The translations under genes and the position numbers were made by a program. Shown piece by piece: positions 277 through 62,219 of a stretch of 64,000 bases of DNA. Position 1 is the first letter of the stretch. The number at the start of each line of letters is the position of its first letter. The notes beneath the pieces are model-generated. The model worked only from the letters and a program-made list of their open reading frames with translations. It searched no databases and was not told the DNA's origin. Origin of the DNA: Chiloscyllium plagiosum (taxonomy: Eukaryota); NCBI RefSeq assembly GCF_004010195.1, contig NC_057718.1:92350765-92414764 (forward strand). Reading direction: 5' to 3'.

Positions 277-491
277 TAGGAGAAAGTGAGGACTGCAGAT
301 GCTGGAGCTCAGAGGCGAGAGTGTAGTGCATGAAAAGCACAGCAGGTCAGGCAACATCCGAGGAGCAGGAGACTTGACATTTCAAGCATAAGCCCTGATT
401 CCTGATGAAGGGCTTCTTCCCGAAACATCGATTCTCCTGCTCCTCAGATGCTGCCTGACCTGCTGTGCTTTTTCAGCACTACTCTCTCGAC
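277..491. mobile_element. Palindromic mini-element made of two inverted Penelope-like (Neptune-type) termini
   Basis: Arm ~317-396 is the reverse complement of ~409-490. TSD ttcttgc(t/c)cttgac at 263-276 and 492-505. Same terminus as the PLE at 40156-41890. Confidence 0.8.
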
Positions 492-816
492 TTCTTGCCC
501 TTGACCACATTCTACTGCACCTGAAAGTGCACTGTGGACATTGGCTGAGGACAGTGTTAAGTATGGATGTGATGACTCTCCTACCCGATATTTCATTGAC
601 CTGACCCACATGAGGAGTGGCAATTTGTACCAGGTATTGATGCTAGAGGTGCAGCTGAATCTTGCAATGAGCTTGCAATCTTCAAGAAAAGTGGGCTAAA
701 GTTAACTTACAATTCAGGCTCAAACTGAAGTAAGGTTTAATGTGTAATCTTTATCTCTGCATTCTCTTATTTTTGTTCAGTTGTTCATGTAGACTTTTCT
801 TGTTTGATAATCAGTA

Positions 817-1135
817 CAAGTACACAATCCTTTATCCGAAACCCTCGGAGCCAGCTGGTTTTCGGAATTCAGAAGTTTTCGGATTTCGGAATAAGTGACG
901 GTTTAATGGTGGAATAAAATAAACTTACCAAACAGCAGACGCACCTGTGAGTACTATGAGTGCTGAGACAGAATTGATGCCTACCAGTGCTGGGCCATGC
1001 CACCATGTCACACCTGAGTGACGTGGGTCAAGTGGTTGTGGAGTTGGGTTAACTGTTTGCATGCCAAACAACCTTATTGTGGAGAAAAAAGCTTCACGAA
1101 AATCTTTGGATTTCGGATAAAGGATTGTGAACCTG
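817..1135. mobile_element. Non-autonomous Tc1/mariner-pogo (Tigger-like) MITE
   Basis: 25-bp TIRs caagtacacaatcctttatccgaaa / tttcggataaaggattgtgaacctg (2 mismatches), TA on both flanks. Confidence 0.8.
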
Positions 1136-1641
1136 TACCTCCTTTCAAGTATGAATGGAGACATGCAAGTTTTAATTTCAACTTCAGCATTTAGTTTAAC
1201 AAGTGAAAAATGTAAAAATAAACTTTTCTTGAAATAAAAGTCTTTGTTCAACAATTTGAGGGTGTCTCTCAGTAGCATTAATATGCAATTACGTTGTTTT
1301 GGCAGCAGGAAATGAAACACAGCCATTAAAATAGCAGGCAAAGTATGCTTATTTAACACAAAACTGTACCTCATTCCAATTAAAATGTAGTTAACTAAAT
1401 TTCACTGCAGGAGCAAAAGCCGATTATGGTTTTCTTCAGTGAAAGAAAAATAAATTTTATTATCTGCTACTCTGAGAAAAATAATGAAGATAGGACTTCA
1501 AACATTTATACATAAAGGTATAAATTTAGAAAGTGTCCAATATAAAAGGAAGATGAAAAAGTCCTTAGTGTGCTTAAGGTGTAAGATTATAATCATTATT
1601 TTTGGATCATTAGCATAAGTGAACATGGCAGTGAACATGGT

Positions 1642-1818
1642 AGAATCATGGAATCCCTACAGTGTGGAAACAGGCCATTCGGCCCCATTAGTCCACACTG
1701 ACCCTCAGAGTATCCCACCCAGGCCCATTCCCCTATCCTATTTCTCTACATTTCCATGACTAATGCAACTAACCTACACATCCCTGAAAACTATGGGCAG
1801 TTTAGCATGGCCAATTAT
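1642..1818 (-). mobile_element. HE1/V-SINE 3' fragment
   Basis: Reverse complement matches the 3' half of the SINE at 15327-15641 (gccatgctaaa...cctgtttccacactgtag). Confidence 0.7.
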
Positions 1819-1963
1819 CCTTTGAATTCTCGGTTTCTTCTTAATATTTATTATCTTCGGGCTTTCTTTATGTAAAAGAGAGAGTTTAGTCAGCTAGTCT
1901 AATTCTCCAGTTAAAAATCCATCTCTCACATTCTTTCTGCCAAAACCAGCTAATTTAATTAAA

Positions 1964-2119
1964 AGGAGAAAGTGAGGACTGCAGGTACTGGAGATCAGAG
2001 TTGAAAAGTGTAGTGCTGGAAAAACACAGCAGATCAGGAGAATTGATGTTTCTGGATTATGAAACGTTGATTCTCCTGCTTCTTGGCCTGATCTGCTGTG
2101 CTTTTCCAGTGCCATACTT
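1964..2119. mobile_element. Palindromic PLE-terminus mini-element (same family as 277-491)
   Basis: Starts aggagaaagtgaggactgcag. Arms gctggaaaaacacagcagatcagg and cctgatctgctgtgcttttccag are inverted. Confidence 0.7.
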
Positions 2120-2134
2120 GAAATATTTTGTGCA

Positions 2135-2633
2135 AGAAAAAGATATTACAAACACTACATTGGACAAACAGGCAGAAAACTAGTCACCAGGATACATGAA
2201 CATCAACATCAACTAGCCACAAAATGACATGACCCACGCTCACTAGTATCCTTACATATAGATGAGGAAGGACACCACTTCGATTGGGACAACACATCCA
2301 TCTTGGGAGAAGCCAAACAGAGACGTGCACGAGAATTCCTAGAAGCACGGCATTCCAACCGGAACTCTATCAATGAACACATCGGGTTATACCCCATCTA
2401 CCAACTCCTGAGAAAAAGAACAGGAAATGGTATCACCACTGGAAATGACATCACCAACCCAAAGAAACCCAAACACATAAGTAGAAAGCAGGATTCATGT
2501 ACATTGCTTCGCCTGAGGCCCATTGATGATGTTACCTAGTAGGGTGACAAAATGTCTGGAAATGAACCTCCCAGCTCAGCAAGCAAACCTACATCCAGAA
2601 CCTCAACCTGGGCTACAAATCTTCTCAAAACTT
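2135..2633 (+). mobile_element. Penelope/Poseidon-type PLE 3' fragment (GIY-YIG endonuclease plus terminus)
   Basis: Translates KHYIGQTGRKL..IHEHQ, HHFDWDNTSILG, REFLEA.HS. Degenerate hammerhead at ~2522-2557. Confidence 0.85.
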
Positions 2634-2742
2634 GTTGTATTTTATCTGTTTCTTTTTAATAGCTGTTACTATTGATAGACTAAATCAATCACTATAAATG
2701 CCGGAGGAAACATCACAGAAGCGCTTCACAGGAGGCTCCCAA

Positions 2743-2782
2743 GCACTGAGGATGTCACCTAGACAGGGGACGAAACGTCTGC
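2743..2782 (+). ncRNA. Minimal type I hammerhead ribozyme motif in the 5' pseudo-LTR
   Basis: gca-CUGAGGA-u-gucaccu(agac)aggggac-GAAA-c-GUC-ugc: intact core, stem II with one mismatch, 3-bp stem I, palindromic minimal stem III. Confidence 0.75.
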
Positions 2783-4805
2783 AACACAAATTCCCAGCTC
2801 GGCGAACAGAACTACAACAACGAGCACCCGAGCTACAAATCTTCTCCCAAACTTTGAACACCTACGGGCAAAAGATGCTAAGACAAGCCAGGAAATGGGA
2901 ATCCTGTGCCAACCGCCTAAGCGCCAGATACGAACAACTCTGGTTCCTGCACGAATGCCAAAAGAATTGAATCCTTCCAGTATGTGTCAGATACAGACCA
3001 CCAGTCAACAACCCACACGCCAGGGACATAGCCAGACAGAACGGATTCAGGATGATCCAGGTAATGATTACAGACGCACACAACAGACTTCACAAATACA
3101 GACAAGAAATTGCGCGCCTAAAATCGTTAATTTCAAAAACCACCAATCAGGAATGGACCCGGACCAGAGAACAGGCCATTACCATAGTACAGAACAGGAC
3201 CACACATCGCAAAAAAACACTCAGGAACAATGGACTGACAGAAGAGACACAACAAACAGTGAGACAAAGTATCGTACCCCTGATAACAAGGAAAAGACAA
3301 ACACATAACCTCAACACCAAGGAGAGGGAAGCACTAAAAGCACTAAGAAACGATAAGAACATAATCATACTACCAGCAGTCAAAGGCAGAATGACGGTCA
3401 TCCTGGACAAAGCAGAGTTCATCCAAAAAGCGCAACAACTACTTGCAGATACCAACACCTACCAAAAGAGGAAGTTTGACCCCACCCCACAGCTCACCAA
3501 TAGGATAAACAACACACTGAGGAACCTACAAAAATACGGCCAGATAACCAAGTTTGACCTACAGAGAATGAAACCTGAAAGCAACAACACCCCCAGATTC
3601 TATGGATTACCTAAAGTGCACAAACCAGACAACCTACTCAGACCCATAGTATCACTATCAGGGACACCATCACACAAACTGGCTAAAGAATGACAGCAGA
3701 AACTGAAACCCCTGATCAGCGGATCTAGGCACTCTATACAGTCAACACAGGAATTCTTGGACATCATCAGAAATATACACATAGACAAGGAAGAAACTAT
3801 GGTCTCATTCGATGTAACGGCACTGTTCACCTCTATCGACAAAACAATAGCCAACCTGCTGGACATACAGAACAGACAACAAGACGGAGAACCTATCAAC
3901 AAAGACTGCATACTCAAACTACTGGACCTGTGCCTCACAACACACTTCACATTCAACAACCAAATATATGAACAAATCAACGGCACACCTATGGGCTCAC
4001 CCATCTCTGGACTCATAGCAGAAACGGTTATGCAAAGGTTAGAACAAACAGCCTTACCGCAAATTCAACCCAAACTCTGGGTCAGATATGTAGATGATAC
4101 CTTTGTAATCATTAAAAACATAGAAATAGAGAATACACACCAGCTCATCAACGCCACACTCACAGGAATCCGATTCACTAGAGAGGCAGAAAAGGACAAC
4201 CAACTCCCATTCCTAGACGTGATGGTACAGAGAACACCTAACTGAGAATTCACCACAAAGGTATACAGGAAAGCCACATACACAGACCAAGTCCTGAACT
4301 ACGAAAGCAACCACCCCAACATACACAAAAGAAGTTGCATCAAGACACTGTTCAAAAGGGCCACAACACACTGCAGTACACCAGAACTGCANNNNNNNNN
4401 NNNNNNNNNNNNNNNNNNNNNNNNNNNNNNNNNNNNNNNNNNNNNNNNNNNNNNNNNNNNNNNNNNNNNNNNNNNNNNNNNNNNNNNNNNNNNNNNNNNN
4501 NNNNNNNNNNNNNNNNNNNNNNNNNNNNNNNNNNNNNNNNNNNNNNNNNNNNNNNNNNNNNNNNNNNNNNNNNNNNNNNNNNNNNNNNNNTTCGACTGGG
4601 ACAACACTACTATTATAGGACAAGCCAAACAGAGAACAGCCAGGGAATTCCTAGAGGCATGGCATTCATCCAAGATTCAATCAATAAATACATTGACCTG
4701 GACGCAATATACCGGCCACTGCAACGGACAACTGGAAGCGGAAGATACAAATCACTATAAATGCCGGAGGAAACATCACAGAAGCACTTCACAGGAGGCT
4801 CCCAA

Positions 4806-4845
4806 GCACTGAGGATGTCACCTAGACAGGGGACGAAACGTCTTC
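4806..4845 (+). ncRNA. Minimal hammerhead motif in the 3' pseudo-LTR
   Basis: Same as 2743-2782 except ugc>uuc after GUC, which weakens stem I. Confidence 0.65.
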
Positions 4846-6573
4846 AGCACAAATTCCCAGCTCGGCGAACAGAACCACAACATAGACTAAATACCAGTGG
4901 AGTGTAAGAATAATTTTACCTCAAATTAAAATACACAATCTGTGCATGCAGATCATCATACACATCTAGTGTTCAGTTGTATTCATTATACTTTGTTGTA
5001 CAAAGTTCTATCACTATTAGAAAACAATCAAAGAGAGAGATTCTTGGTAATTTCACATTGTTCTTTTATTCCTGTAGACTTGCTTAAACACTTAAGGAAG
5101 AAAATAAGAAAGATGTTGCCTTAATATAAAATTATGTCACCTTTTAAAGCCATCTGAAAAGGCTTGCTTTAAAAATAATTATGCAGGAAAAAGTGCTTGT
5201 AGCCAGTTTCTTCATACTTGTGCCCTACAAATAGCAGATGTGATCAATAATTTGCTAATATGTCTTTTTGGTAGCACTCACTGAAGGAAAATGTTGAGTC
5301 AGGATACCAGGGGGCGTCTTTCCATTACACGATGCCATGGAATATTATAATTTCACATAAAAATAGAAGTTGCTATCAATGATGTACTCTTCTTCACCTG
5401 GCTGACCTATTATAGTCTTTGCTGATAGAACCAGCATAGAGATCACTGTGGTGAATTTATGATGATTTCTAATCATTTAAAACACAAAAGATTAATAAAA
5501 ATATAATGACTTATACTGTTGGAAGTTGCAGAGATTCACTCAGTCCAAAAAGTTAGTGTTGATGATCTTTAAAAATATTTATTTTAATAGTTGTTTTCTG
5601 CTTTGGCCATTTTCATCTTTCCCTTGATTTCATGTCTATGTCAAAGCTTTTATTTTTTTCATGTACAATGATTTAAATGCAAGTTGTATTTTTGGCTCAA
5701 CAGTCTGTATTTGTTAAGATCATTCAGTTTGGTTGAAGGGCCTGCTGATATTTTTCTTGTTCTCACACACTTTAGTCTACTGCAATGGGCACAAATTGGT
5801 GGTGAATGAGTATAAATCTCCATTGGTAACAGCACAAAATTTGTGGACAACTGTAAGCAAGGTGAATGATGAAAGATATTCTCTTGTTTACAGTAAAATT
5901 TAGGTTAATATAATGCAATTTGCTCTGAAATGTCAACCTAAATAACATGCTCAGGAATTGATGTGGGATTTGAACTTTCTGAATTTCTGACTCAGGTGGG
6001 AAATGTTACCAATAATTTTAGCGTATAAGAATGCACAGCAATTTAACTTTGTAACATAAAAGAGACACACATTACACACAGCTGCCACAGAATAGTAATT
6101 TACATGATATAATGCTATTTCTACAATTCTATTCCCTCTAATGTATTGTGAACAATACTGTTGGAAATAAACCAGTTTTATAATAATAAAAGCTATTTAG
6201 GATTTAAATTTTTGAAAATAGTCTCACTTTCAGATTTAAATGTTCATTCATCTTTGTTCTTCCATCAAATTCTCATTAAAGCAGATAATGTCTAATGCTG
6301 CTGAAGTTTTGTCTGGTATTGATTTGGTGGTAGCATGCATGAAACACGGGACAAAAGTAAGTTTGGTATACGTGTTTTGAGTGAACTAATGTATGCGGTT
6401 GTCCCATTGGATTGTAGCAGGTGATGAAGTTGTGATTGTAGGTTGTGAACTCAGAAAAGAAATAGCACAATCCTCCAAGAATTGTGTAGTATGGTTTCAC
6501 TGTGTAACATAAGCTTTTAAAAACCTGAAACTATCCCCATAACCCGACATGTATCACGGCTGATTGACATAAA

Positions 6574-6695
6574 CTGCACATCTTTGGACAGTGGGAGGAA
6601 ACCGGAGCACCGGGCAGAAGTCCACACAGAAATGGGGAGAACATACAAACTCCACAACAGGTACCCAAGGCTGGAATAGATCCTGTGCCCTGGAA
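6574..6695 (-). mobile_element. V-SINE (HE1-like) central fragment
   Basis: Reverse complement of the V-domain core tgctccggtttcctcccac...gatgtgcag. Confidence 0.7.
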
Positions 6696-7355
6696 CTTTA
6701 TTGACATGTTTCAGTGTGCATGATTTTACATAGTAAGCTACGGTATTGGAAAAATGTAGCTATTCTTTCATACTATGTGCTGTTCTTGATTTTTCTTCAA
6801 TACCTTGGCATTCACATGTTTATAAGTAGTTGATTCCATCTGTAATAACATCAAAAGTGTAAAACTAAAATTTAATTTGTTTTGTATATTAATTTATTTC
6901 ATGAAATGTGTAATTGCACAATACTTGGCGGTTCACTGCTACCATCTCAAAGGCAATTAGAAATGGGTAGCCAATGCTGGCCTTGCCAATGATGCCCACA
7001 TACTGTGAATGAATAAAAATATACAATTACAGAGATTGTAATGATTGGATCAACTTTAAAACCATTCGGTTGACATCAAATTAGTTTTTTCCTTGATAGT
7101 AAACCTTGCATGTATTTTGAAAGTGAGTATTTTCATCTTTCACTCATCAGGATAATTTTAAGAATGCCAATGTAAAGGGAAAAAAGAAATGACACTATGA
7201 GAGGAAAGTGCAGATTGGTTGCAACATGGACTTTGAATAAAGATTTTTGCCATGGAAAATGCACCAATTAGCAATGATTGACCGTTTCCTCATCTGCAAA
7301 ACGCATAAGTTGTTTGTGAATTCTTTCAAAAACATTCTTAAATTTTTTTCTTTAG

Positions 7356-7418
7356 TGAGCAACAAAGACTAGAGCTGGAACAGAATCTTTTGAAATGTAA
7401 GAAGTCAAGTCGGTGGAT
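7356..7418 (+). CDS. KIZ: Kizuna centrosomal protein, internal coding exon (probable exon 2), 63 bp, phase 2-2
   Basis: Acceptor tttttctttag and donor gtaagt. Reads (S)EQQRLELEQNLLKCKKSSRW(M), matching my recollection of vertebrate KIZ SEKKRLDLEKKL. Phase joins the next exon. Confidence 0.85.
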
Positions 7419-8588
7419 GTAAGTATTGTTTTCCCTATATCCCTTTCATATTAAAGAGACCAGAACTATGTACTAACTCAAAGTATAATCTAATCAATAT
7501 TCTGTGCAACTTTAACATAATTGCTCCTTTATGCATTCTTCAACTAATTTGCTACTTCTAGCAAATGTAGTAGGAGCCAAGATCTTTCCTTCATTCCAAT
7601 TAAACTTTTGCTTTAGAGTCTGTGGTTTCTTGACTCTTCATGTGATACATTTGTCTATACTGAAGTTAATCTGCCAAATACATGTTTCCTAAGAATTAAA
7701 GTGCAACATCTGTCACAGCATAACAAGAAGAGAGCAAACAGTTTGTGTCCATCTACTTGATCTGCCGCAGTACTGGTTGGCATGGCCACAGCAGATTTCC
7801 AGAGGTTCTTCATGTTTCGAGACTTAGTTTTCAATTAAATCCATCTAATACAACGATTCTAGAGAAGTAACCCAGGAATGTTAAGCAATGAAACCTCCTT
7901 CAAAGAGGACGTCTAAATATGTTTCTAAAAATTGAGTTGATGTACTCCTCCTGTGCATGTGTCTCATTCGTTCTTAACAGCTAATCCATCCCTTCAGATA
8001 AGAGTTGCAGCCCTGTGTTACATTTAGTGTGTTATTATCCCATATGAGTTTTCAAAGATTGGCCCAATTCAGGCTAGGAACTTATCACAGATGTCAAATG
8101 AGGCAATTCTCAAGATATCATGGTCTGGTCCAGCAAAAGCTTTGTGGAATTTATGAATGTTGCTCTAGAAATCTGCTATTTGACACCAGAACCAAAGTCT
8201 GTAGCTTTTATTACTGAGGAATTTACATGAAGAATTGCCACAGGCTATTGCATATGGAACTGCATCTCTGAAGGATGAGCATCTTCAGGAAAGGCAGGGA
8301 AAAAGAAATGATCAGTGAAATTTTGAATTGCTGACCACAGACCAACCATGCATAAGTGGGCTTATATCAAAATGTGCCATTATTGTTTATTGACATACTT
8401 CCTTGCATTAATGTTGATATCATTTTTTCCACTTGTGCTGTGACCTGAATTATTATTTTAAAATTGTATTGATTTGACTTGCCATCTTCAGATGTTAAGT
8501 AAGCCTAATTTTTCCTATTTCTGAGCTCCTGTGAAATGCTTTTTCAACATTATGAAAGAAAACTCTTGTTTCTTTTTCTTAATTCCAG

Positions 8589-8745
8589 GCTAAAAAGAGC
8601 CAGGTTGAAAAGTTACTTGAGAGAATTGTGTGAACGGGAGAGAAAAGCTCAGCTTCGAAATCGTCAATTGCTCAAGGATTTTGAAAACATTGAAGCCCAA
8701 GTTGCAGCATTAACATCAAGTTCAGACACACTGAAGCAAATGAAG
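8589..8745 (+). CDS. KIZ: Kizuna, probable exon 3, 157 bp, phase 2-0
   Basis: Acceptor ttccag and donor gtagag. Encodes LKRARLKSYLRELCERERKAQLRNRQLLKDFENIEAQVAALTSSSDTLKQMK (inside ORF 8536-8787), similar to recalled KIZ LKNYLKEICESEKKAHTRNQEYLKRF coiled coil. Confidence 0.9.
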
Positions 8746-8961
8746 GTAGAGGATTGTCATCTGCTAGTCCAACAATTTGATATTTAGTAGATTTAAATTG
8801 AAAGGTTTTAAATTATGAAGTAGTTGTCTGAAAGTGATTACACGACAGTATCCTCATTGCCGATTTCAGAGGAAGTTACAAAACAGCAAAGTAGTTTGTA
8901 ATCTTTGTATGATCTGCACATGAAGGCCATACCCTTAAAATTGCTTCCTAGCATTAATCTA

Positions 8962-9047
8962 GGATCAAAAAGGGTGGTGCTGGAAAAGCACAGCAAGTCA
9001 GGGAGCATCGGAGGAGCAGGCGATTCGATATTTGAAACATAAACCCT
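8962..9047 (-). mobile_element. Single PLE-terminus arm (family of 277-491)
   Basis: gtggtgctggaaaagcacagcaagtcagggagcatcggaggagcagg..., ending at hammerhead stem II. Confidence 0.65.
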
Positions 9048-11706
9048 AATACATTACACAATGGACCTACCTGCATGGTCGGTCTATAGTGTAATGTATT
9101 TTGTTTTTGCCAGATATTCATATAATTCAAACATGTAGAATTAAATTGTGATTATCAGCGATGAATATCCAAGAAATTATTCAGTATTTACTGTATATTA
9201 ATTAATTTAGATATGAGTTATGAAGGTTTTGTTTTCGTGCAGATTTATCAGTTGTATAAAAATGGACTTGAAACCCTTTTTCTTTCACACTGCATTTTTT
9301 CAGCACACATTTGGAATTGAATTTGTTTTAGATGGTGTTATTCCATATTGAACCTCATTCAATTTTCTGTGTTTGTTCATCGACAGGAAGTTTTTTTGAT
9401 GATTTTATTATTAGTAGTCATCATGTTGATAGTCTCGGATTTAAATTTAGATTTAAAATTGGTGTACAAGAGATTCAGTTTGTATTATTTCTCAACTTGG
9501 ACTCCCCTAGATGAGGAATCTTTTCCCAAATAAAATGTATGTTAGATATTATTAGCTGGGTATCTACATCATCTAATTCAGCTTCATTTGCAAAAGCTTT
9601 GTAACTCAGCACATATATTTCCCTAGATGACTCATTTTGGTAATGGCATTGTGCAGGATGGAACTGAGATAATTGTACCAAGAATGTTTCAGGTTTGCAT
9701 CCTTGTTGACGCTGTAATAGTTGACCTCTACTGGAGTGTTTGTAAAATACTATAAAGCTTCTTAATTCATGTGTCAGGATGTAGGAAATGACTGCCAGAA
9801 CTCCTGCTCTTGATTACTATTCAGTGACCCATACTGGCAAGTGCACGTATGTAAACACAGGTTTTCATTTTTCAACCACATGATTAAGGACCTTCTAATA
9901 CTCATTGTCAAGGATCACACAGAAGAATGGCTATGAGACTGTTTTACAGCAAAAATGATATTTTCTGGATTACATTAATGTAATAATTTTACAAAAGAAA
10001 CTATTTAAAAAGCATATAATCATAACAGTAATTGTGACAATATTTACTCTCTGTTTCATCAACTGTGTGACAACAATGCTTGATAATTAGTCAAAGGGTT
10101 AATGGTGTGATGAAAGGTGTAGTTTGCATATCACTTTTCAAGTTTGTATTTCAAACTAGCGCATATGCTTGTTGGTTCCTTTTTGGGAAGGGTGAAAAAG
10201 ACAGGTTAGAGAATTGTATCAGAACCACACCTTATTGCAGAGAGCAGGTGATTGCAAACACCCAAAGTGTTTATGGAAGGTTGTTTATGCTGTGGCATTT
10301 ATGGTGGAATAGCCATTGAAAAGCTTTAGTTGCTTTTGGTTTAGAATAATCCAGGATTGATTTCAATTTAGTTTAATAGCCAGAGATGGAAAGCTTTTAG
10401 GGCAGTTTTGGAGGCGATCTGAATGGATGATATATAAATATAGGTTTTTTTTGGAAAAGCATATAGGACAGTGCAAGGAAAATCCATTTATCTTAATGTA
10501 TAAGTTTAGCTTATGAAACTTCCGTACCTGCAGCATTTCAATCAGAATCTTCAGAATATTGATTATTGACAAAGTCAAAGATTTCACTTTCATGGATAAA
10601 GGAAAGAACTGGGGTGAAGCAGTTAAGTTGAACATAAAGATTTAATGTAGAAGGATAATTTTCTAAATTTGAATCACTGTGAAGTGATAATTAGGTAATG
10701 AGAATTTGTTAACCTGTGTGTTTTAAGATCTTTAAAATTTCATTTTATATTTAGCTTGGATTGTGTAATGTATTTTATTATTAAAGAAAATCTGCCACCT
10801 TGTCTGTCTGTTTTCAGTGATTGACCACCACTTTAAATTTAAAATAAAATACATCCACGTTTCATTCTGTTATATAACTTGTCTAGTATTAACTACCAAT
10901 CAGTTGGCTTATAGCAGTGGAAAATGATATTGATATTCACAAGACCAATTTTAATGATCTGTACATTTTGGATATCAAACAGAAATTGTATGTTTTCATT
11001 GCACAATTCAACTGCAGAACAAAATTTTTCACCAGTTCTCTCAAAGCTTAACCTGACTCCAACAATTTTCTTGCTTTATGAAACCCAATTTCCAGAATGG
11101 GTTTATATTAATAAAGTATTGTTTTCATATTTTGATTTGACTTATTGTTGTCACGTGGCTAAATACAGTGAAACATTTTGTTTTGCATGTAGTACAGGCA
11201 TATCATAACATACAAGGACATACAGATTGTAGGGTGTTTAGAGAGCGTGGGGCACACAAGGCTACGGCTACAAGGACATGCACAATCACCTTGTAGATTT
11301 GACCTTCGAGAGGTCCATTCAGCAGTCTAACAGCAGTAGGGAAGAAGCTGTTCTTGAACCACTTGGTACATGTGTTTAAGCTTCTGTATCTCCTGCTACA
11401 TGGAAGAGGTTGGAAGAGAGTATTATTGGGATGTGGGGGGGTCTTTAATGATGTTGATTGGCTTTACATGGCAATGAAGGTATAGATGGCTTCGTGATGA
11501 TCTGGGCTTAGTTCACAACTTTCCATGGTTTCTTCTGGTCCTAGGCATTGCAGTTTCCAGACCAAGCCACTATATACCTAAATGGAATGCTTTCTGTGAT
11601 GCATCTGTAAACATTGGTGAGGGTCATTATGCACGCAAATTTCCTAAGTTTCCTGAGGAAGAAGAGGCATTGTTGTGCCTTCTTGATGTTGCATCTACAT
11701 GAGATG

Positions 11707-11819
11707 GAGAAAGTGAGGTCTGCAGATGCTGGAGATAGGGCTTATGCCCGAAACGTCGATTCTCTTGTTCCCGAGATGCTGCCTGACCTGCTGCGCTGTT
11801 CCAGCAACACATTTTCAGC
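11707..11819 (+). mobile_element. PLE-terminus mini-insertion (short inverted tail plus direct arm)
   Basis: gagaaagtgaggtctgcagatgctggaga followed by agggcttatgcccgaaacgtc. 13-bp TSD tctacatgagatg at 11694-11706 and 11820-11832. Confidence 0.8.
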
Positions 11820-11909
11820 TCTACATGAGATGATCAAGACAGATTGTTGGTTATCGTCACTCTAGGAACTTGATGCTCTTGACCCTCTCCACTTAAGTTC
11901 ATTGATGTA

Positions 11910-15060: not shown

Positions 15061-15326
15061 TTCAACATATACGAAGAGTGGAATATTGAATGATGAAGTA
15101 TGGGTTAATTTGAGGATTGCTTTGTAAACATTGTTGTGACAAGATGACAAAGGGTGATTTGGCTCTCTTTTTAACCCTTCTTGGTCAGGTACAACAAACC
15201 TTTCATTTTCCTTTAGCAAACATTTCAATTAAAATGTTATAAGGTCAAAATTCCGGAGCTCGTTGCAAGGTTTTTCTGAGTGAAAGGAAAGATTTTATTT
15301 GTTAATAAAGAGGGTAAAAAAATTTC

Positions 15327-21707: not shown

Positions 21708-21801
21708 TTACTTTTTCAAATAAACCTGTTGGACTATAGCCCGGTGTCACTTGCTTTTTGACTTTGTCCACCCTAGTCCAACACCAGCACCCCTACATCA
21801 T
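21708..21801 (+). mobile_element. PLE terminus fragment (family of 60084-60203)
   Basis: aaataaacctgttggactatagcccggtg...ccaacaccagcacccctacatcat is homologous to the reverse complement of 60084-60165. Confidence 0.6.
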
Positions 21802-23009
21802 ATTTATTTCATACAGACCTTCAGTATTGTTTTAAAGTATTTATTACAGTCCATTACCATTCCAAAATCAAGAGTAATAATACAGACTAAGATAGGTTTT
21901 TTGCTCTGTTCTGCCTGATTTCAAGATAATTAGATGGGTAAGTTTTGAGAATAGATTCTCATTACGATAGAGCTATACCACTTAAATGGATGACCAATTT
22001 GAAGACATTTTATTTAGCAGATGGAGGAAGCAGTTTAAAATGATATACCTATTCAGTTACTGTTGCTGTTAAAATTATTATTGTTTTTGTGTTTTATTGT
22101 TGCCATTCATGAGTGTCTATGAATTTTAATTATTCATCTCTCACCTTCCTCTTCAGAGTGGTTTCCCATTAGGATATATCTTTGCTTCTTGGAGAAAGAG
22201 GAGGGGAAAGAAAGTGAGGCCAAACTGATGTGATAGCAGTAGTTAAACTTAGCACCCAGCACCAATACTTTATGACCAAAGCATGCATCCAGAGATGTGA
22301 GTTTACAGGAGAAGCTATAAGGGTTAGACTTCATGCTCTGAGAAAACCTGTAGCTTGTTCCACCACGTGTATCATTCAATTGACATGGTATTTCCTGCTT
22401 CACATGGACATGCTGACTATCTGATGTATTTCCATTGCCTAGATCGGAGCTGTGGTGTTCAACTGAACTGATTTCAGATGTCACAGTTGAAATGTGCAAT
22501 TTTGTTTTTTCTAATACTTAGCCAGTCAGATTCTGATTTGCTAAGGTCACATTTTGTTTCATTTCATTTAACAAAAATTAATTTGCCTTTCACTGAAACA
22601 CATGCAATGCTGCAAACTTGGTTTCAACATTAAACCAGAAGCTGCTTATCCAAAAAAAAAAGATGAGAGTAAAGCAAGTTCTTTTTATTTAAAATGCAAT
22701 TCAAAAGGTTTTAATGCACAGACTAAAAGTATAATCCACTCATCCTAATGCCATCACATTACAGTACTCAACCATCAGAGAGAGTTCACCTCTCTATCAC
22801 ATCTATAGGTTTATTTTTATTGTTTCCTTCAATCCCTGGTCTTGAGAGTTTGGTAGCCACTTCCTTGATTTAGACTGTCAACTCCGAATAACTCCTTTGG
22901 GTTTTAGTTAAACACTTCTAGTTTTGAAGTATTAAGTTTAAATCCTTACATTGGAGGTAACTTATTTCTGAACTTTTCTGAATGAATGAATCCAAAGATT
23001 GATTGAACG

Positions 23010-23588: not shown

Positions 23589-23975
23589 ACTCTTTTCTCT
23601 CTCATAAACTGTTTTGTGTATCTGACTTCAACCAGGATTCTGCAAACTAATGAACCAAACCTTTCTAACCACGTGGTTTTCTTCTAAGGAAAAATTAATT
23701 TTTATCTTACTAAACAGCAAGCAAGCTAATACTCTTTGATGTTTATTGTGTTCACTTGTTAAATTCTCCCAGTGCAAACAAATTCCCATTGTCACCTCAG
23801 CAATTCCCCCTCTCTCAGACTGGTTGAAATAAAATCATGACTCCAGAAAGACTGATATGTGTATATGAAGTAACAATTAACTTATCAAAACTTATATGTA
23901 CTAATTCTAAATCCAAACTCTACCAGAAATGAGAGTGATAAAAGTATATATGAATCACATATCGCATATGAATCA

Positions 23976-24076
23976 ATTCTGAGGAAGGGTCACTCGACTT
24001 AAAACATTTAACTATGATTTTTCTCCACAGATGCTGCCAGACCTGCGGTGCTTTTCCAGCAATTTATATTTTTGTC
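23976..24076 (+). mobile_element. PLE terminus fragment with decayed hammerhead
   Basis: ttCTGAGGAagggtcactcgacttaaaac...cagatgctgccagacctg...ttttccagc. Related copy at 36966-37092. Confidence 0.55.
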
Positions 24077-24177
24077 TATTAATCACATACCATGCATTAC
24101 ATGTTATTAAAGCAAAACTTTAAGAAAGTTGAAAAAGAAAAGGTTTAAATAATGTCTATTTTATTTTTGTATCGTAG

Positions 24178-24270
24178 ATGGAATATGAAAAACAAATTGA
24201 AAAGTTAATGCCAATTTGGAGTGAGAACCTGAAATCACAAAGGAAGGAGAAGGAAGCCACTATTGAGCAA
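24178..24270 (+). CDS. KIZ: Kizuna, probable exon 4, 93 bp, phase 0-0
   Basis: Polypyrimidine tract plus cgtag acceptor and gtaaga donor. Encodes MEYEKQIEKLMPIWSENLKSQRKEKEATIEQ (cf. recalled KIZ LEYETQIKKM). In frame with the previous exon. Confidence 0.85.
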
Positions 24271-25999
24271 GTAAGATTGGAATTCTTTAAATGTATTATG
24301 TATTTGTGTTAATGAAAAATCAAGCAAGACCTCTCAAGTTGTGCCATTGTAAATTTTTGTGATACCAGGAGGGGATTATAATGGAGATCATGGACATTAC
24401 AACATTCGTAAATTTGCAAGTTTCAGAATCAGACAGGCAAAGACAGGAGATTTTCAGGCAAATTTAACATAACTTTGCTGTTATTGCTATTATAGCTTTT
24501 TTGGCAGTATCATTTGTTGATTCTCTATTCTTGAACTCACATCTTCCTTGTTCTTCCTCTCCCTGTTTGATTTTTCCAGCTTTGGTTACAAAGTAAATTA
24601 TGACTGATACTATTATACGTCATGGAAGTCTAAATAAAACCTGATACATGTTTGATCTGGAAGAGGTTATGTGGAAGAGGTTATTACTGCTGACCATTGT
24701 CTTAGGCTTAACCAGAATGTTTAATTCCACCCTGAAAATTTCATTGTATATTGTAAAGCAGGCCTAATTCTGTCTCCATACATCACCAGTGTTACCCAAT
24801 CTCAATACATCTGATGCCAAGAACCTCAACTATGTCTTTGTCACCCATGACACTTCCAGGCTCAGTTATCTAATGCTTTCCTGGCCAGTCTGCTATCCTT
24901 AATGCTCTCTAAACTTCAGTTCATTTAAAGTTTTGCGGCCAATAAGTATCTTATGCCCATTTTCATGATGTGAGTGGTGAGAATTATATCTGTGTGCACA
25001 TCACCACAAATAGCCTGCAAGTTCCCAGACATAGGCACCACAAAGTGGGCAATGGACTTATGGGAAAACAGTGATGATTGAGTGTTTTATGATATGGTAG
25101 CTCATTAATTAGAATGACTAAGTTTGATGTAGGAACAGAGGTGTGTCACAACATGCTATTTCAGTTGCCTCCATTGCAAGATTAATCCAGTAGAGAATCC
25201 TGTAGAGATTTTTATGGCATGCAGAATACTAGTGTTTTAGTTGATGCTATTACATTTCACTTAATTTCACTACTCGCTGTTTGGAAAGTATTTTTCTCAA
25301 CTTATATCAGCTTGTTCTGCAAATCACTTTAAATCTGTGCCCCTGGTTCGTGATTTTTTTATGAGTGAGAGCAGTTTCTCCTTATCTGTTCTCTCCAGTC
25401 CTTTTATAGTTTTGAAAACCTCTATCAGATCTCCTCTTAGATGTCTTATCTCCTGGGAGAACATACCCATTTCTTCAATCTGTCCTCCAAACTGAAATTT
25501 CTCATCATTAGAACTCCTGATTTATAGTTAGATATAATTGAACAAATTAGGTATGACAGTAGATTACTTGATGTTTATAAACAATAGCATAAATTTCTTG
25601 TCTTATATGTTAGCAGGAAAACTGAATTTGCATTTATACAGTGCCTTATGACATACACAGAACTTTCTTAAGAACATTACAATGAATGAATTGTATGGAG
25701 TATAGTCAGTTATCCTGCAGCTACATGCAGTAGTCATATTTCACATACTTAAATCCCACAGGTCACAAATGAGTAGAAAATATGCTTTTTAGTACGGTTG
25801 ATTCTGAGAGGCATGTTGGTTAGGACAATAGGAATATCCCTTGTTGCTTTTCAACTAGTACTAAAAACAGTTTTACATTCACCCAAACTTTTTTGACAAC
25901 TGATTGGCATTTGCATTAAATAATAAATGAACTTGGACCTTCCATTCTTACTCTTTAGAATGTAATTTATGTGTCTGGTAATTTTTTGTCATTATCTTC

Positions 26000-31638: not shown

Positions 31639-31673
<35 letters not shown>

Positions 31674-36965: not shown

Positions 36966-37092
36966 CTTCTGAGGGAGAGTTACCGGACCCGAAACATTAA
37001 CTTTGATTTCTCTTCACAGATACTACCAGACCTACTGACCTTTCCAGCAAATTCTGGTATTGTTACTGATTTACAGCATCTGCAGTTCTTTC
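36966..37092 (+). mobile_element. PLE terminus with decayed hammerhead
   Basis: ttctgagggagagttaccggacccGAAAcattaac...tttccagc...cagcatctgcagt. Confidence 0.55.
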
Positions 37093-40071: not shown

Positions 40072-42245
40072 TGTTTCATTCGTTCATGAGATGTGGGTGT
40101 TGTTGGCCGGGCTAACAATTGTTACTCACACCTACTTGCCCTTGATCAGGTGGTGGAAAAAGTGAAAACTGCAGATGCTGGAGATCAGAGTCAAAAAGTG
40201 TGGCACTGGAAAAGCACAGCAGGTCAGGCATCATCCAATGAGCAGGAGAGTGAACGTTTTGGGCATAAGCTGTTCATCAGGAATGTGGGGGTAAATGTTG
40301 GTGGGGGGTCAAGGGGGCTGAGAGATAAATGAGAGGGGAGTGAGGTTGGGGGGGAAGGTAGCTTGGAAGGTGATAGATAGGTGAAGGTGGGTGTGATAGG
40401 GTTGAGTGGATAGGTGGAGAGGAAGTTGAACAAGTAGGATAGTTCAAGAGGGTGGTGCTGAGTTGGAAGTTGGATATGGGATAAGGTGGGGGGAGGGGAG
40501 ATGAGGAAACTGGTGAAATTGACATTAATGCCATGTGGTTGGAGGTGCCAAGGTGGAAGGTGCGACGTTCTTCCTCCTCCTCCTTCACAAATATCTCCCA
40601 GCCCGACCTCAAGTTCACTTGGACCATCTCGGACACCTCCCTCCCTTTCTTGGACCTCTCCATCTCCATTCCCGGTGACTGACTCAACACAGACATCTAC
40701 TTCAAATCGATGGACTCCCATGGCTACCTGGATTACACCTCATCCCACCCACCCTCCTGTAAAAATGCTATCTTTAACTCCCAATTTCTCTGCCTCTATC
40801 GCATTTGCCCTCAGGAGGAGTAGTTCCACTCCAGAACATCTTAGATGGCCTCCTGCTTCAATGACCGCAATTTCCCTTCACATGTGGTCAATAATGCCCT
40901 CCAGCACGTCTCCTCCACTTCCCACACCTCCACCCTTGAACCCCACCCCTCCGACTGCAACAAGGATAGAACCCCCTGGTCCTCGCCTTCTACCCATCAA
41001 TCTCCAGATAAAACACATCATCTTCTGCCACCTACAGTCAGATCCCACCACCAGAGATGTATTTCCCTCCCCGCCCCTATTAGCATTCTGCAGAGACCAT
41101 TTCCTCTGCGACTCCCTCATTAGGTCCACGCCCCCCACCAAACCACCCTCCACACCTGATACCTTCCCTTGCCACCACAAGAGGTGCAAGACTTACACCC
41201 ACATCACCTCCCTCACCTCCATCCAAGGCTCCAAAGGATCCTTCCACATCCGGCAGAGATTTTTCTGCATATCCAAACACCTCATCTACTGTGTCCGTTG
41301 CTTCCATGTGGTCTCCTCTACCCTGGAGAGACAACATGCCAAATTGCAGAATGGTTCAGGGAACAACTCCAGGACACATGCACCCAACAACCCACTACCA
41401 TGTGGCCGACCACTTCAATTCCCCAACCCAGTCTGTCAAGGACATGCAAGTCCTGGACCTTCTCCACCGCCATATCCAAGTCACCCGATATTGGAGGAGG
41501 AACGCCTCATCTTCCGCCTTGGGACCCTCCAACCATGCGGCACCAATGTCAATTTCAGCAATTTCCTTATCTCTCCTCCCCCCACCTTATCCCAGATCCA
41601 ACCCTCCAACTCAGCATCGTCCTCTAGAACTGTCCTACTTGTCCATCTTCCTTCGCACCCATCCGCTCCACCCTCCGCTCCAACCTCTCATCATCACCCC
41701 CACCTCCATCGACCTATCACCTTCCAAGCTACCTTCCCATCCTCACCAGCCCTATCCCCTCCCATTTATCTCTCAGCCCCCTTGGGCCCCACCCACATTC
41801 CTGATGGAGGGCTTATGCATGAAACGTCGACTGTCCTGCTCTTCGGATGCTGCCTGACCCGCTGTGCTTTTCCAGCGCCATGCTTTTTCACTTGATCAGG
41901 TGGTGATGAGCTGCGTTTTTGAATCTCTGTAGTCCATGTGCTTTGGGTAGACCTACAATGCTCTTCAGAAGGGAGTTCTAGGATTTTGACCCAGCGACAT
42001 TAACGGACAGTGATACATTTTGATTCAGGAGTGACTCGGAGGGAATCTTGCAGGTGGTGGTGTTCCCATGTATCTGCTGCTCTTGCAAGATGAAAGTAGG
42101 CATAGGTTTGGAAGGTGCTGTCTGCAGTGCTTCTTGAAAATGATGCATGCACTGCTCTGACTGAGCGTCAGTGGTAGAGGGAGTGACTGTTTGTGAATGT
42201 GGTGCCAGTCAAGTGGGCTCCTTTGTCCTGGATAATATCAAGCTA
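40072..42245 (-). mobile_element. LINE 3' fragment (family of 50630-51895), split by the PLE insertion
   Basis: 40072-40155 and 41906-42245 together are the reverse complement of ~51460-51895. Confidence 0.6.
40156..41890 (+). mobile_element. 5'-truncated Neptune-type PLE with inverted terminal arm
   Basis: 40156-~40580 is the reverse complement of the 3' end (~41495-41890). 15-bp TSD cttgatcaggtggtg at 40141-40155 and 41891-41905. PCHHKRCKT linker and HLIYCVRC GIY-YIG remnant. Confidence 0.9.
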
Positions 42246-50629: not shown

Positions 50630-51895
50630 GTGGCAAAGATCAAGGCTGCATTCAACCGAATGTGGCATCAAAGAGCCCAATCAAAACTGAAATCAATGGG
50701 TATGAGGAGGCAAACTCTTTGCTGGTTGAAATCAAAGCTGAGACATAGGAAGATGGTTGTGGTTGTTGAAGGTCAGTCATTTCAGCTCCAGGAATCTCTG
50801 AGGAATTCCTCAGGATAGTCTCTGAGGCCTAAACATTTTCAGCTGCTTCTTCAATAACCTACCCTCCATCATACTATAGGAAGGATGTGGAGGCATTGGA
50901 ACGGGTGCAGAGGCAGGAATCTCTGAGGAATTCCTCAGGATAGTCTCTGAGGCCTAAACATTTTCAGCTGCTTCTTCAATAACCTACCCTCCATCATAAA
51001 GTCAGAAGTGGGGAAGTTCATCAATGTTTGCATAGTTCTCAGCACCATCTGCAACTCCTTGGACACTGAAGCAGCCCATGTCCAAATGCAACAAGATCTG
51101 GACAACATCCAGCTTGGGCTGATGTGTGGCAAGTAACAATCATGCCGCACAAATGTCAGGCTATGGCCGTTAACAATAAGAGACCATCTAACCACCGCCC
51201 CTTGACAGTCAATGGTGTTACCATCACTGAGTCCCACACTACCAACATCCTGGGGATTATCATTGCCCAGAAACTCAACTGGACCAAATGCATAAACACA
51301 GTGGCTATAAGAGTAGGTTAGAGGCTAGGAGAGTGGCAAGTAACACACCTCCTGATTCCCCAACCCATGTCCACCATCTACAATTCACAAGTCAGGAATG
51401 TAATGGAATACTCCCCACTTACCTGGAGGAGTGCATCCCTAACAACACTCAAGAAGCTACATCAGGACAAAGCAGCCCACTTGATTGGCACCACATCCAC
51501 AAGCATCCACTCCCTCTACCACTGATGCCCAGTAGCAGTTTTGAGTACTATTTACAAGATGCACTGCAGAAATCACCAAAGAACTTCACAGCATCTTCCA
51601 ACCCCTCACCACTTACATCTAGAAGGACAAAGGCAGCAGGTATATAGGAACATCACCACCTTTAAGTTCCCCTCCAAGCCACTCATCATCCTGACTTGGA
51701 AATGTTTCACTATTCCTTCACTTTGCTTGGTCAAAACTGTGGAATTCCCTCCCAAACAGCATTGTGGGTCAACCTACAGCAGGTGGATTGCAGTGGTACA
51801 GGAAGACAGCTCACCACCATCTTCTAAAGGACAACTAAGAATGGGCAATAAATACAGGCAGCCAGCAACACCCACATCCCACAAATGAATTTAAA
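50630..51895 (+). mobile_element. Non-LTR retrotransposon RT and 3' end (CR1/L2/Jockey-group family)
   Basis: IKAAFNRMWHQ (DIxxAFDRVWH-like), ILGIIIAQKLNWT, tail ending aatgaattt. Homologous to 63040-64000. Confidence 0.75.
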
Positions 51896-59100: not shown

Positions 59101-59364
59101 AAATTCTTTGTGAATCTTTGTCAGCAAACCTAATGCTGTTCATATTTGCATTTGGAGAATATTCCAGAATTGGATTGGGAGATTTATTTATTGTGGTTAA
59201 AAAAATCAAATTAATGTTTTGTATTTGATTTTATCATATTTTTGAAGTTGAAGAGAAAATATTTCTCAATTTTAGGCATAATTGTTTTTATTCAATGTGC
59301 CAACCATAAAAATAAAATCAAATTCAGTTTCCTGCAAGGTGATGTTCAATGTGTTCTTTTTCAG

Positions 59365-60019
59365 ACAGGGAATTTGTCAAGACAAAAGGATATAGATGTT
59401 GGAAAGCACATGTCAAAAGGATTATCCACCACTTGCATTATGGACCAACAAGCATCATGGACCTCAAATGGAACATGTTCAAATTTACGAGAAAAATGTC
59501 AGCAGCATGTGGAGAGCTTTACATCTTCCCAGCCATACAGGCAGGCAGCGTCAGTGACAACAACGCACAGTAAATCTGTGATGGACAACTTGAAGTCACC
59601 CATGTCAAGCAAGGGAAGCCAAGACTTCCACACTGTTTCTGACATAATAGAAAGGGAGACAGGACTCCAAACAAGTCAAGTAATGCCATTCACTCCTGTA
59701 ATCTCTTCAAGAAATGAACGACTTTGCTATGAAGGAATAGAATGTCATAGGCGTATTAGAGCAAATAGTTCAGCTGGCAGTCAGGAATTACCTATACCTG
59801 TGACTCAGTTAGAATCCATTAAGGAAGAGTTGACACAAACCATTGTACTGGATGATTTTAAGAATCGCCTGACAGGTGAAGAAAATAATCTCAAAAACAT
59901 AATTGTAAGTGAACAAGCACATGAGCGGTTTCAGAGACAATTCATGGATCAGCACCAAGATAGTGGGTGTTCAGGAGTTTCCAGCATGAACACAAAAGAA
60001 AACAGCATTTTTCATTTGG
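59365..60019 (+). CDS. KIZ: Kizuna, probable large exon 5, 655 bp, phase 0-1
   Basis: Acceptor ttctttttcag, open frame within ORF 59242-60057, donor gtaata. Begins TGNLSRQKDIDVGKHMSKGLSTTCIMDQQAS (cf. recalled KIZ INSGTAMSRGLYQPATIFMGRQMS), then Ser-rich low-conservation sequence. The 3' boundary is less certain. Confidence 0.75.
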
Positions 60020-60083
60020 GTAATACTTTGTCATTTTTGATTAAAGTACACTGCTGATTTACTAATCTTTCAGGTGGATATTA

Positions 60084-60203
60084 TGATTTGGAGATGCCGG
60101 TGTTGGGCTGGGGTGTACAAAGTTAAAAATCACACAACACCAGGTTATACTCCAACAGGTTTAATTCGAAGCACACTAGCTTTCGGAGCGACGCTCCTTC
60201 ATA
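60084..60203 (-). mobile_element. PLE-terminus mini-insertion with hammerhead (third family)
   Basis: 12-bp TSD aggtggatatta at 60072-60083 and 60204-60215. Minus strand reads cuuAUGA-a-ggagc(guc)gcucc-GAAA-gcua. Confidence 0.75.
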
Positions 60204-60559
60204 AGGTGGATATTAGGATTTATTTAAATATTACAAAAACTGAAGTTCTTATTTGAATCAGAATATTACTTTTAATGATAAGAATTAATGCAAAATGACT
60301 CATCTTGTATCTTGAATGTAGAATTTTGTTTCCCAGAGTTGTTTAGTATTGCCATCTAAAATGTCTGTGATCCTGTCTGATCTTTAAAGGACATGCTACG
60401 ACACAGAACAACCTTATGTGGATTTGAAGTCCAAAGTTGACATTTTTAAATTAAAATCATAGTGGGTTATTTAGGGGACTTGAGCTGTTATTAACTCTTA
60501 ATCATCTTGATTTAGTTGACAAGGTGTAAGATAGTATTGAGTCATTTTATTGAGTTTAT

Positions 60560-62055
60560 GTTAGCAGTGACAAGTATGTGTGATGACTCAATTTACTGAT
60601 GACACCAAAATGGGGAACAAATTAAGCAACAAAAGGCTATCAGTTAGTTAAATAAGTGGGCAGAAATTTGGCAGTTGAAGGCTAATGTGGGAAAATGTGA
60701 ACTTGTCCACATTGGCAGAAAGAGTGAAAAAGGAGCATACTATTTAAATTGTGAAATGTGATGTACAGATGGATCTGAGTGTCCTGGTATATGAGTCACA
60801 AAAAGTTAGTCTGGAAGTACAGCAAGTGTTTAGGCAGACAGATGATATGTTGGTGTTTATTGCAAGGAAAATAGAATATGAGAGTGGAAAACTTTTACTG
60901 CCACTAGCAAGCTTTGAGAAGATTTATAGCTCAGGTTGAGGTTCTGGATGTAAGTTTGCTCACTTAGATGGAAGGTTCATTTTCAGATGTTTCATCACCA
61001 TACTAGTTGACATCATCAGTGAGCCTCCGGTGAAGCAATGGTGGTATGGCCCGCATTTTATTTATGTGTTTAGGTTTCCTTGGGTTGGTGATGTTATTTC
61101 CTGTTTTTTCTCAAGACGTGGAAAATGGGATCCAAGTCAATGTGTTTGTTGATAGAGTTTCAATTAGAGTACCATGCTTCTAGGATTTCTAGCTTGTGTC
61201 TCTGTCTGGCTTTTCCTAGGATGAATGTGTTGACCCAGTCAAAGTGGTGTCCTTCCTCATTTGTATGTAAAGATACTAGTGAGAATGGGTCATGAGATCA
61301 GGAGCTGAGGTCACTAGTATCCTTACATACGGATGAGGAAGGACGTCACTTTGACTGGGACAACACATCCAACCTCGGACAAGCCAAACAGAGACACGTG
61401 CAAGAATTCCTAGAAGCATGGCAGTCCAACCAGAACTGTATCAACAAACACATTGACTTAGATCCCATTTGCCACCCCATGAGAAAAAGAACAGGAAATT
61501 ATATCACCACAGGAAATGACATCACCAACTCAAGGAATCCTAAACACACAAATAAAAAGCAGGACATACCACCAGTGCTTCACCACAGGCTCACTAATGA
61601 TGTTACTTAGTATGGTGACAAAACATCTGAAAATGAACGTTTTACTGCCACAGTACAGAGCTTTCCAGAACCCATCTCTGGAGTATAAAATCTTGCTCTC
61701 CTCATTTGAAAAAGGACATAATTGAATTTGAGTTAGTTCAGAGAAGGTTCACTGAATTCATTCATGAGGTGAAGGACTTGTCTTGTGAAGAAAGGGTGAA
61801 CAGATTACGCCTTTACCCATTAGAATTTAGAAGAATGAAAGGTGATCTTATTGAAACATTTAAGATTGTAGGGAGACTCAACAGGGTGAATTTTGTGAGG
61901 ATGTTTCCCCATGTAGGAGAGAGTAGAATGAAGAGCACAGTTTAAGAATAAAAGGTTTCATTTTGAAGATAGAAATGAGATATATTTTCTCAGAAAGTCA
62001 TTCATTAATCCGTGGAATTCCGACCCCTAGAAAACAAATAGACTGGGTCATTGAA
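60560..62055 (+). mobile_element. Old CR1 LINE RT fragment, split by a PLE insertion
   Basis: FTDDTK at ~60593 and KDIIEFELVQRRFT..LEFRRMKGDLIETFKI. The host sequence resumes after TSD ttttactgccac. Confidence 0.75.
60905..61639. mobile_element. Poseidon-type PLE as two inverted 3' arms
   Basis: 60905-~61295 is the inverted counterpart of ~61308-61639 (EFLEAWQS..INKHIDLDPI). 12-bp TSD at 60893-60904 and 61640-61651. Homologous to 2135-2633. Confidence 0.88.
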
Positions 62056-62108
62056 TTTGGGGAGGCAATGGTCTAGTGGTATTTTTGCAAGACTATTAAT
62101 CCAGAAAC

Positions 62109-62219
62109 GGAAATGTGTTGCTGGAAAAGCGCAGCAGGTCAGGCAGCATCCAGGGAACAGGAGAATCGACGTTTCGGGCATAAGCCCTTCTTCAGGAATT
62201 CGGGCATAAGCCCTTCTTC
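62109..62219 (-). mobile_element. PLE-terminus mini-insertion with intact hammerhead core
   Basis: 16-bp TSD ctattaatccagaaac at 62093-62108 and 62220-62235. Confidence 0.85.
62168..62195 (-). ncRNA. Minimal hammerhead ribozyme motif
   Basis: CUGAAGA-a-gggc(uuau)gccc-GAAA-c-GUC with a perfect stem II. Stem I is weak. Confidence 0.7.

Follow-up and report, generated by a model that had tools for sequence, protein, structure and literature searches.

Penelope-like element hammerheads in the KIZ introns of Chiloscyllium plagiosum: clustered insert 5′ ends, conserved source motifs and decaying copies

Minimal hammerhead ribozymes in the pseudo-long terminal repeats (pLTRs) of Penelope-like elements (PLEs) have been published before, as have their large numbers and the inverted ends and tails of the insertions. 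According to PMC4209133, these ribozymes share a core, an extra base between positions 9 and 10.1, a G10.1–C11.1 pair and a palindromic 15–16 region; they form several families per genome and are mostly solitary, with some opposite-strand pairs 100–700 bp apart. The same features recur in the shark Chiloscyllium plagiosum. We examined a stretch of 64,000 nucleotides (NCBI RefSeq assembly GCF_004010195.1, contig NC_057718.1, positions 92,350,765–92,414,764 of the forward strand; hereafter the window), which lies within the gene KIZ. An initial annotation of this window, made from the letters alone, had quoted 13 hammerhead motif sites in four families (A to D) with different stem II sequences. 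All 13 were recovered with the quoted positions and strands, and the assignment as minimal type I hammerheads located in the pLTRs of PLEs is confirmed.

The likeness to described systems extends to the mode of insertion. The Anolis Poseidon element PAc (Frangieh et al. 2024, PMC11167929) resembles family B in that its open reading frame (ORF) starts within the motif; the ATG of family A, at about +162 (positions are counted from C3 of the core), lies outside it. As in the shark, two 3′ ends define the PAc tail and the hammerhead site is uncut in inserts. Endonuclease-containing (EN+) PLEs (Craig et al. 2021, PMC8557442; Arkhipova et al. 2013, PMC3846280; Schostak et al. 2008, PMC2377424) also show 5′ truncation, partial tandems, an inverted 5′ copy, a one-sided tail of 30–40 bp and a pLTR promoter with initiator (Inr) or TATA box. 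For head-to-head pairs, Arkhipova et al. (PMC3846280) proposed self-priming on antisense templates, whereas the shark pairs more probably consist of two primed sense copies. Animal non-LTR retrozymes (PMC7229834; bioRxiv 10.64898/2026.07.22.740005) carry type I hammerheads in PLE-derived repeats as well. Unlike these, the window contains neither tandem hammerhead units nor a tandem hammerhead array, and only a 224-nt unit elsewhere in the genome fits such an organisation. The shark helices (I, 2–4 bp; II, 4–6 bp) are shorter than those of the Schistosoma families (4–5 and 7–8 bp, PMC4209133). Unlike in the EN+ PLEs, stubs of some 95–130 bp with a fixed 5′ edge dominate among the products of families A, C and D; the accessible part of the PAc paper mentions neither a genomic pile-up of 5′ ends nor a transcription start. 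In a search that did not extend to Repbase, Dfam and most subscription papers, we found no published report of shark PLE hammerheads or of a fixed 5′ edge. The observation we add is that the 5′ ends of A, C and D inserts cluster 4–8 nt before the core.

To locate these 5′ ends we used the tail as the anchor. In family A the 3′ ends fall at either of two positions about 35 nt apart, near +91 and near +126. Among 140 young A copies, 40 start at −6 to −2 and 46 at −1 to +18, with 6 at −10 to −7, 4 at −30 to −11 and 22 anywhere beyond −10. Only three start around the cut (+26 to +30), and the cut site has no 5′ peak. The mode lies at −4 in family A (24 of 141) and at −8 in family C (6 of 61), while 5 of 23 D copies start at −4 and 6 at −2; these counts include loci picked by protein or motif. 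A TATA-like box is found about 30 nt before the edge in all three families, at −35/−37 (A), −35/−33 (D) and −40/−38 (C). The family C edge tracks this box and not the edge of stem I, which is at −3 in C. In one A subfamily, roughly half of the 30 loci inspected have their first base at −4; of 18,329 exact copies genome-wide that carry the four bases ahead of the core, 9,122 continue for another four bases upstream. At 30 loci that contain an ORF start (two pairs overlap), many copies consist of two joined segments, with a further copy directly after the ORF start; a beginning near −4 (−4 to 0; partly by eye) is frequent for both segments. Inverted partners lie within 330 nt of 70 out of 166 A copies and 43 out of 81 C copies. 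Since the cut site is retained within the inserts and is not where they begin, we conclude that their templates were uncut. The A edge is not explained by a splice acceptor, there being no AG before −4. Two loci considered as tandem pairs (L226 and L240) were rejected as separate neighbouring insertions.

Inspection of the tails by eye revealed acceptor-like sequences downstream. The family D tail, for example at 24016–24036, has a pyrimidine tract followed by CAG directly past the cut site, and both A and D tails contain a later CTGAT...CAG stretch; both resemble a splice acceptor.

In the reading that we hold to be probable, these pLTR hammerheads were kept by selection in the source elements and decay in the inserted copies, and most stubs were likely made from uncut RNA, copied up to a predicted transcription start just before the motif. 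RNA polymerase II would begin about 30 nt past the TATA-like box within the pLTR, such that A and D transcripts would open with four bases that form the 5′ strand of stem I. The element protein would initiate reverse transcription inside the RNA at the tail and, some 95 or 130 nt later, run off at the 5′ end. Head-to-head pairs would arise when both strands of the target act as primers, and template switches would give partial tandems. The ribozyme would cut only as a dimer or with the element protein, would likely trim or retire the element RNA and would be dispensable for most inserts. For the anole element, work in vitro showed that copying starts internally at the tail, that the RNA 5′ end sets the product length and that both strands are extended; ribozyme mutants insert normally, cleavage needs protein, and no RNA sequencing reads ended at the cut site (PMC11167929). 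Promoters have been placed inside pLTRs (PMC2377424, PMC3846280). As a more tentative extension, to which we give nearly even chances, Neptune-type RNA may start at the first base of stem I, the ribozyme may act as a 5′ switch that removes the cap, and the run-off complementary DNA (cDNA), similar to a strong-stop product, may jump between templates and build the pseudo-LTR tandems.

Several observations weigh against an origin from RNA with this start. Fragmented single-cell reads across the A pLTR–ORF junction (701 from X19, none from X20; both strands) do not pile up at a begin or end, from a library that cannot show RNA ends. No edge is seen in family B, 20 of 32 copies of which run beyond −120, although a TATAAA is present at about −53, and the A box reads TTTATC, which is not a canonical TATA. 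About half of the exact copies in the A subfamily mentioned above extend upstream of −4, and therefore other templates or a strand jump are needed for these. Some 5′ pLTRs also start upstream of −4, namely at −15 (L234), near −42 (L296) and at −59 (window position 2687). Few copies were available for C and D, and some loci used for the 5′ modes were chosen on protein or motif; the clades were set from motifs and not from a tree with reference elements, and cleavage is predicted only.

Two other explanations of the inserts were weighed against the start-site origin. The 5′ edge could be imposed at the level of DNA or structure, by the GIY-YIG nuclease nicking the cDNA or by the folded motif or a bound protein releasing the enzyme. 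Consistent with this, the A edge begins with ATT, the cut motif preferred by the nuclease of the anole element (PMC11167929), and in A and D the edge coincides with the 5′ edge of stem I. We nevertheless regard it as unlikely, given that the D and C edges have no ATT, that the C mode (−8) falls 5 nt short of stem I and moves with the TATA-like box, and that a structural block would be expected where the enzyme first runs into the fold, on its 3′ side. Still less probable is a main route through ribozyme-cut, circularised RNA (the model of PMC4209133) or through a short element that copies itself. A motif-holding 224-nt tandem unit does exist (40 exact junction matches), and copies with the ORF start are commonly arranged in tandem, but a circular template would leave no 5′ edge at −4, cut linear RNA predicts an edge at +28, where few A copies begin, and the unit is rare next to the stubs, which number tens of thousands. 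The double-hammerhead fold of the unit also lies 5.7 kcal/mol above the best fold.

The 224-nt unit itself comprises the motif, the tail, the ORF start and 18–20 nt of 3′ untranslated region, and its junction matches are spread over many contigs (39 loci, if two matches 224 nt apart are counted as one array). It is a retrozyme-like mobile derivative of family A. Two loci with this unit (L308 and L312; G000:C1:16161545-16164578 and C1:26520791-26523824) have a stem I of 4 bp.

The view that the four families are independent had to be given up. A and D have a common 3′ tail and cross-match in profile searches, which leaves three lineages; A and D are one lineage with two stem IIs. A/D-related hammerhead variants with other stem IIs and a 4-bp stem I were noticed at L104:98-132, L183:2876-2910 and L130:3535-3570. 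The family forms have the CUGANGA...GAAA...UH core and the extra base between positions 9 and 10.1. The G10.1–C11.1 pair is GC in 12, GU in 2 and AU in 1 of 15 rows, and helix III is replaced by the palindromic 15–16 region, ACGU in A, B and D and AGCU in C.

Direct pLTRs flank ORFs in families A (L234), C (L243) and B (window 2687–4882), and in long copies the ORF is Neptune-type for A and C and Poseidon-type for B. Family D is tied to PLEs by the homology of its tail, with no ORF linked. Judged from sequence motifs instead of a reverse transcriptase (RT) tree, A/D and C would be Neptune-type and B Poseidon-type. Neptune features of family A are a DKG motif in L231 and a CX2-5CxxC linker with a C-terminal GIY-YIG domain in L234; in Pfam searches RVT_1 scored above cut-off in L231, and GIY-YIG reached 19.8 bits against a cut-off of 22.6. 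The ends of L231 are inverted, only one of them carries a tail, and the target duplication measures 15 bp. The family C locus L243 encodes a second Neptune-like ORF with DKG and the start of the linker, the nuclease being deleted. Family B has a C-terminal GIY-YIG domain without a linker zinc finger, and its ORF starts within the motif (by eye). Among 16 ORF pieces from the window, RVT_1 was the only Pfam domain above cut-off.

The initial annotation had read the pairing of diverged stems as structural selection and proposed covariation as a check. Stems I and II do covary between lineages. In an alignment of 15 copies, drawn from A, D, B and two minor relatives, pairing holds in 90.8% of 120 cells, and both sides vary in 7 of the 8 stem pairs. 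Covariation scored 0.721, compared with 0.247 after shuffling (0.721 being reached in 0 of 500) and at most 0.16 with slid partners; the rows are related and hand-picked, so the score is not a probability. Family C was excluded because its alignment was out of register, and its stems pair by eye. The inserted copies gave a different picture. Among 81 A copies that span the motif, non-CpG core positions differ in 0–5%, like the most constant tail positions, while the CpG positions (C11.1, G12 and the palindrome) differ in 19–26%. Structural selection holds for the source elements and not for these copies, in which the core differs as often as the tail. Selection kept the motif in the source elements, the inserted copies decay, and CpG decay strikes G12 and the dimer palindrome first.

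A profile built from real copies matches all 13 sites (E 2e-32 to 3e-5). A hammerhead structure descriptor gave 84 matches in 1.22 Mb of sampled genome, compared with 0–3 per dinucleotide shuffle (20 shuffles), and 82 of the 84 could be assigned by eye to the same repeat lineages. The suggested Rfam search did not help: none of its six matches at E ≤ 10 was a hammerhead. A stricter descriptor, applied to the window only, matched three times (62195, 61019 and a chance match at 34492); of 40 shuffled windows, 37 had no match and three had one. By base-by-base scoring, the full core is kept at five of the 13 sites (402, 2746, 4809, 61019 and 62195) and eight have substitutions in CUGANGA or GAAA. 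At 11737 the 5′ half of the core is gone, and the palindrome is gone in six copies. Only 2746 (+) and 62195 (−) have core, palindrome and both stems as in their own family. Target-site duplications reduce the 13 sites to ten insertions, with 2746/4809, 40280/41801 and 61019/61594 as paired ends of one insertion each. Such duplications were found for 6 of 7 window elements tested; an automatic search in solo stubs recovered 2 of 10, and further ones were identified by eye. The profile search also found four remnants absent from the initial annotation, at 316–400 (−), 2061–2126 (+), 8959–9047 (−) and 21714–21779 (+). All features are collected in Table 1.

Table 1. Insertions, hammerhead motifs and KIZ exons in the window (positions are those of the window; a dot marks features with no single strand)
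Feature	Position	Strand	Remarks
Head-to-head family A stub	277..492	antisense half 277–400, sense half from 398	flanking duplication
Motif of 277..492 stub	402–429	+	core intact; stem II and palindrome damaged
Head-to-head family A stub	1955..2126	.	without 5′ half of core; absent from initial annotation
Older Poseidon-type 3′ fragment	2228..2633	+	end of GIY-YIG; degenerate motif at 2523
Near-complete Poseidon-type (family B) element	2687..4882	+	RT domain; ORF with stops; 11-bp target duplication
Motif of 2687..4882 element	2743..2782	+	only fully intact sense motif of the window; predicted cut after 2779
Second motif of 2687..4882 element	4806..4845	+	core intact; one mismatch in stem I
KIZ coding exon	7354..7419	+	limits approximate
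KIZ coding exon	8590..8751	+	limits approximate
Old family A stub	8959..9047	−	absent from initial annotation
Family A stub	11705..11826	+	CUGANGA half missing; 11-bp target duplication
Family C, tail only	21714..21802	+	absent from initial annotation
Family D stub	23975..24077	+	G12 changed
KIZ coding exon	24178..24273	+	limits approximate
Family D stub	36965..37070	+	A9 changed
In-frame 47-codon (141-nt) AG-GT stretch	40150..40290	+	antisense of family A tail and motif
Neptune-type element, 5′-truncated, inverted ends	40154..41890	.	motifs 40280 (−) and 41801 (+) broken; 15-bp target duplication
KIZ large coding exon	59347..60024	+	limits approximate
Family C stub	60083..60209	−	G5 changed; starts 3 nt before core
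Poseidon-type fragment, inverted ends	60908..61641	.	12-bp target duplication
Young family A stub	62100..62220	−	starts 4 nt before core; intact motif 62168–62195; 13-bp target duplication

Within the Poseidon-type element at 2687..4882, the direct pLTRs (2687–2819 and 4750–4882) are 97% alike, an assembly gap occupies 4392–4590, and the ATG at 2752 falls within the motif. Its 5′ pLTR begins 6 nt before the TATAAA (2687–2700). In the fragment at 60908..61641, the motif at 61019 (−) has an intact core without the palindrome and that at 61594 (+) is broken.

The claim of a very large genome-wide ribozyme load is borne out as a count and overstated as a load. Exact patterns matched 80,723 (A), 5,207 (B), 16,283 (C) and 365 (D) times, in total at least 102,578 matches in 3.556 Gb or 29 per Mb, with no match to any of the reversed-pattern controls. 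Four upstream bases that form stem I are present in 53,212 of the 80,723 A matches. With broken remnants included, five sampled regions (1.22 Mb) contain 411, which extrapolates to roughly a million genome-wide. PMC4209133 counted about 4,000 motifs in the coelacanth and about 9,000 in Xenopus, by methods that differ from ours. For the axolotl up to 120,000 retrozyme copies were given, again counted by another method (PMC7229834), and the bioRxiv survey (10.64898/2026.07.22.740005) sampled one chondrichthyan. Most of the shark copies are broken, antisense, solitary or antisense-twinned.

A stronger form of the claim would have the copies in the genome act as a working ribozyme load, cleaving host transcripts such as KIZ pre-mRNA and shaped by selection. 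The host gene was identified by the large exon, which is 97–99% identical to kizuna of Chiloscyllium punctatum; an atlas search with the KIZ exon peptide gave no match at ≥0.9. KIZ lies on the + strand, starting about 5.3 kb upstream of the window and ending at about 178.6 kb (a span of 184 kb), and all 13 motif sites are intronic. Four of the 13 are antisense to KIZ, and these minus-strand sites are not ribozymes in its pre-mRNA. The motif at 62168–62195, proposed as a target for cleavage assays, is indeed intact and is one of these four, so that it provides no ribozyme in KIZ pre-mRNA. The abundance of exact motifs, the presence of family A sequence on both strands among RNA reads, and the intact sense motif with a same-strand partner in KIZ intron 1 are what speaks for a working load. 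Core positions of the copies are, however, kept no better than tail positions. Family remnants in the KIZ span number 33 on the sense strand and 25 on the antisense strand, hence no depletion of sense copies (a weak test). Of the intact motifs there, 3 are sense and 4 antisense, and 2746 is the only sense one inside the window. Stem I closes with a probability of 0.06–0.69 in 49-nt pieces and of at most 0.05 in a context of 134–190 nt. Inverted partners are as frequent among A copies as given above; the stub at 277..492 folds with its antisense twin into a hairpin of −122.8 kcal/mol, which encloses the motif at 402. Monomers do not cleave and dimers cleave poorly (PMC4209133). We therefore hold a selected, working load to be very unlikely.

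What may be cut in KIZ pre-mRNA is, among the window motifs, plausibly 2746 only, which would have to pair with 4809 across at least 2 kb. The copy at 2687..4882 may keep a promoter in KIZ intron 1 on the sense strand. Cleavage of KIZ pre-mRNA would likely be rare and slight. A likelier effect on KIZ is exonisation of an antisense copy. In C. punctatum, the annotated kizuna isoform X2 (P0001) includes the stretch at 40150–40290 as an exon and isoform X5 (P0002) does not; the acceptor AG of the stretch lies inside the target duplication. It was the sole protein match, and no junction to KIZ exons occurred among the loose read or contig ends listed.

The window contains further repeats. An inverted Neptune-type element body occupies 26002–29333 (26002–27041 minus, 27117–29333 plus), with a motif start at 26012 (−) that breaks off after about 11 bases. 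A young Neptune-type ORF fragment at 37452–37890, 92% identical to L231, reaches the assembly gap at 37903–38716. An exact 85-nt direct duplication with a spacing of 125 nt lies within another repeat at 50789–50998. Translations point to other retroelement fragments at 15302–15670, 44613–44888, 51068–51888, 61637–61945 and 63037–64000, which we take to be CR1/L2-like and SINE-like. A short AT-rich hairpin at 14193–14257 matches mir-190 weakly, far under the family threshold and likely by chance.

The shark case is an unusually dense instance of a known PLE feature, and its value is that of a data set. For the host, long hairpins and new exons from antisense copies are likelier effects than cleavage. 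Both the role of the PLE hammerhead and the regeneration of pLTRs have been called open (PMC8557442, PMC2377424). The fixed 5′ edge together with the missing peak at the cut site yields two predictions that a single cap-mapping experiment can test. If the tentative proposal of an RNA start at stem I with template-jumping run-off cDNA is true, the shark genome, with roughly 29 exact motifs per Mb, would preserve its record in tens of thousands of junctions, and it would explain how pLTRs are regenerated.

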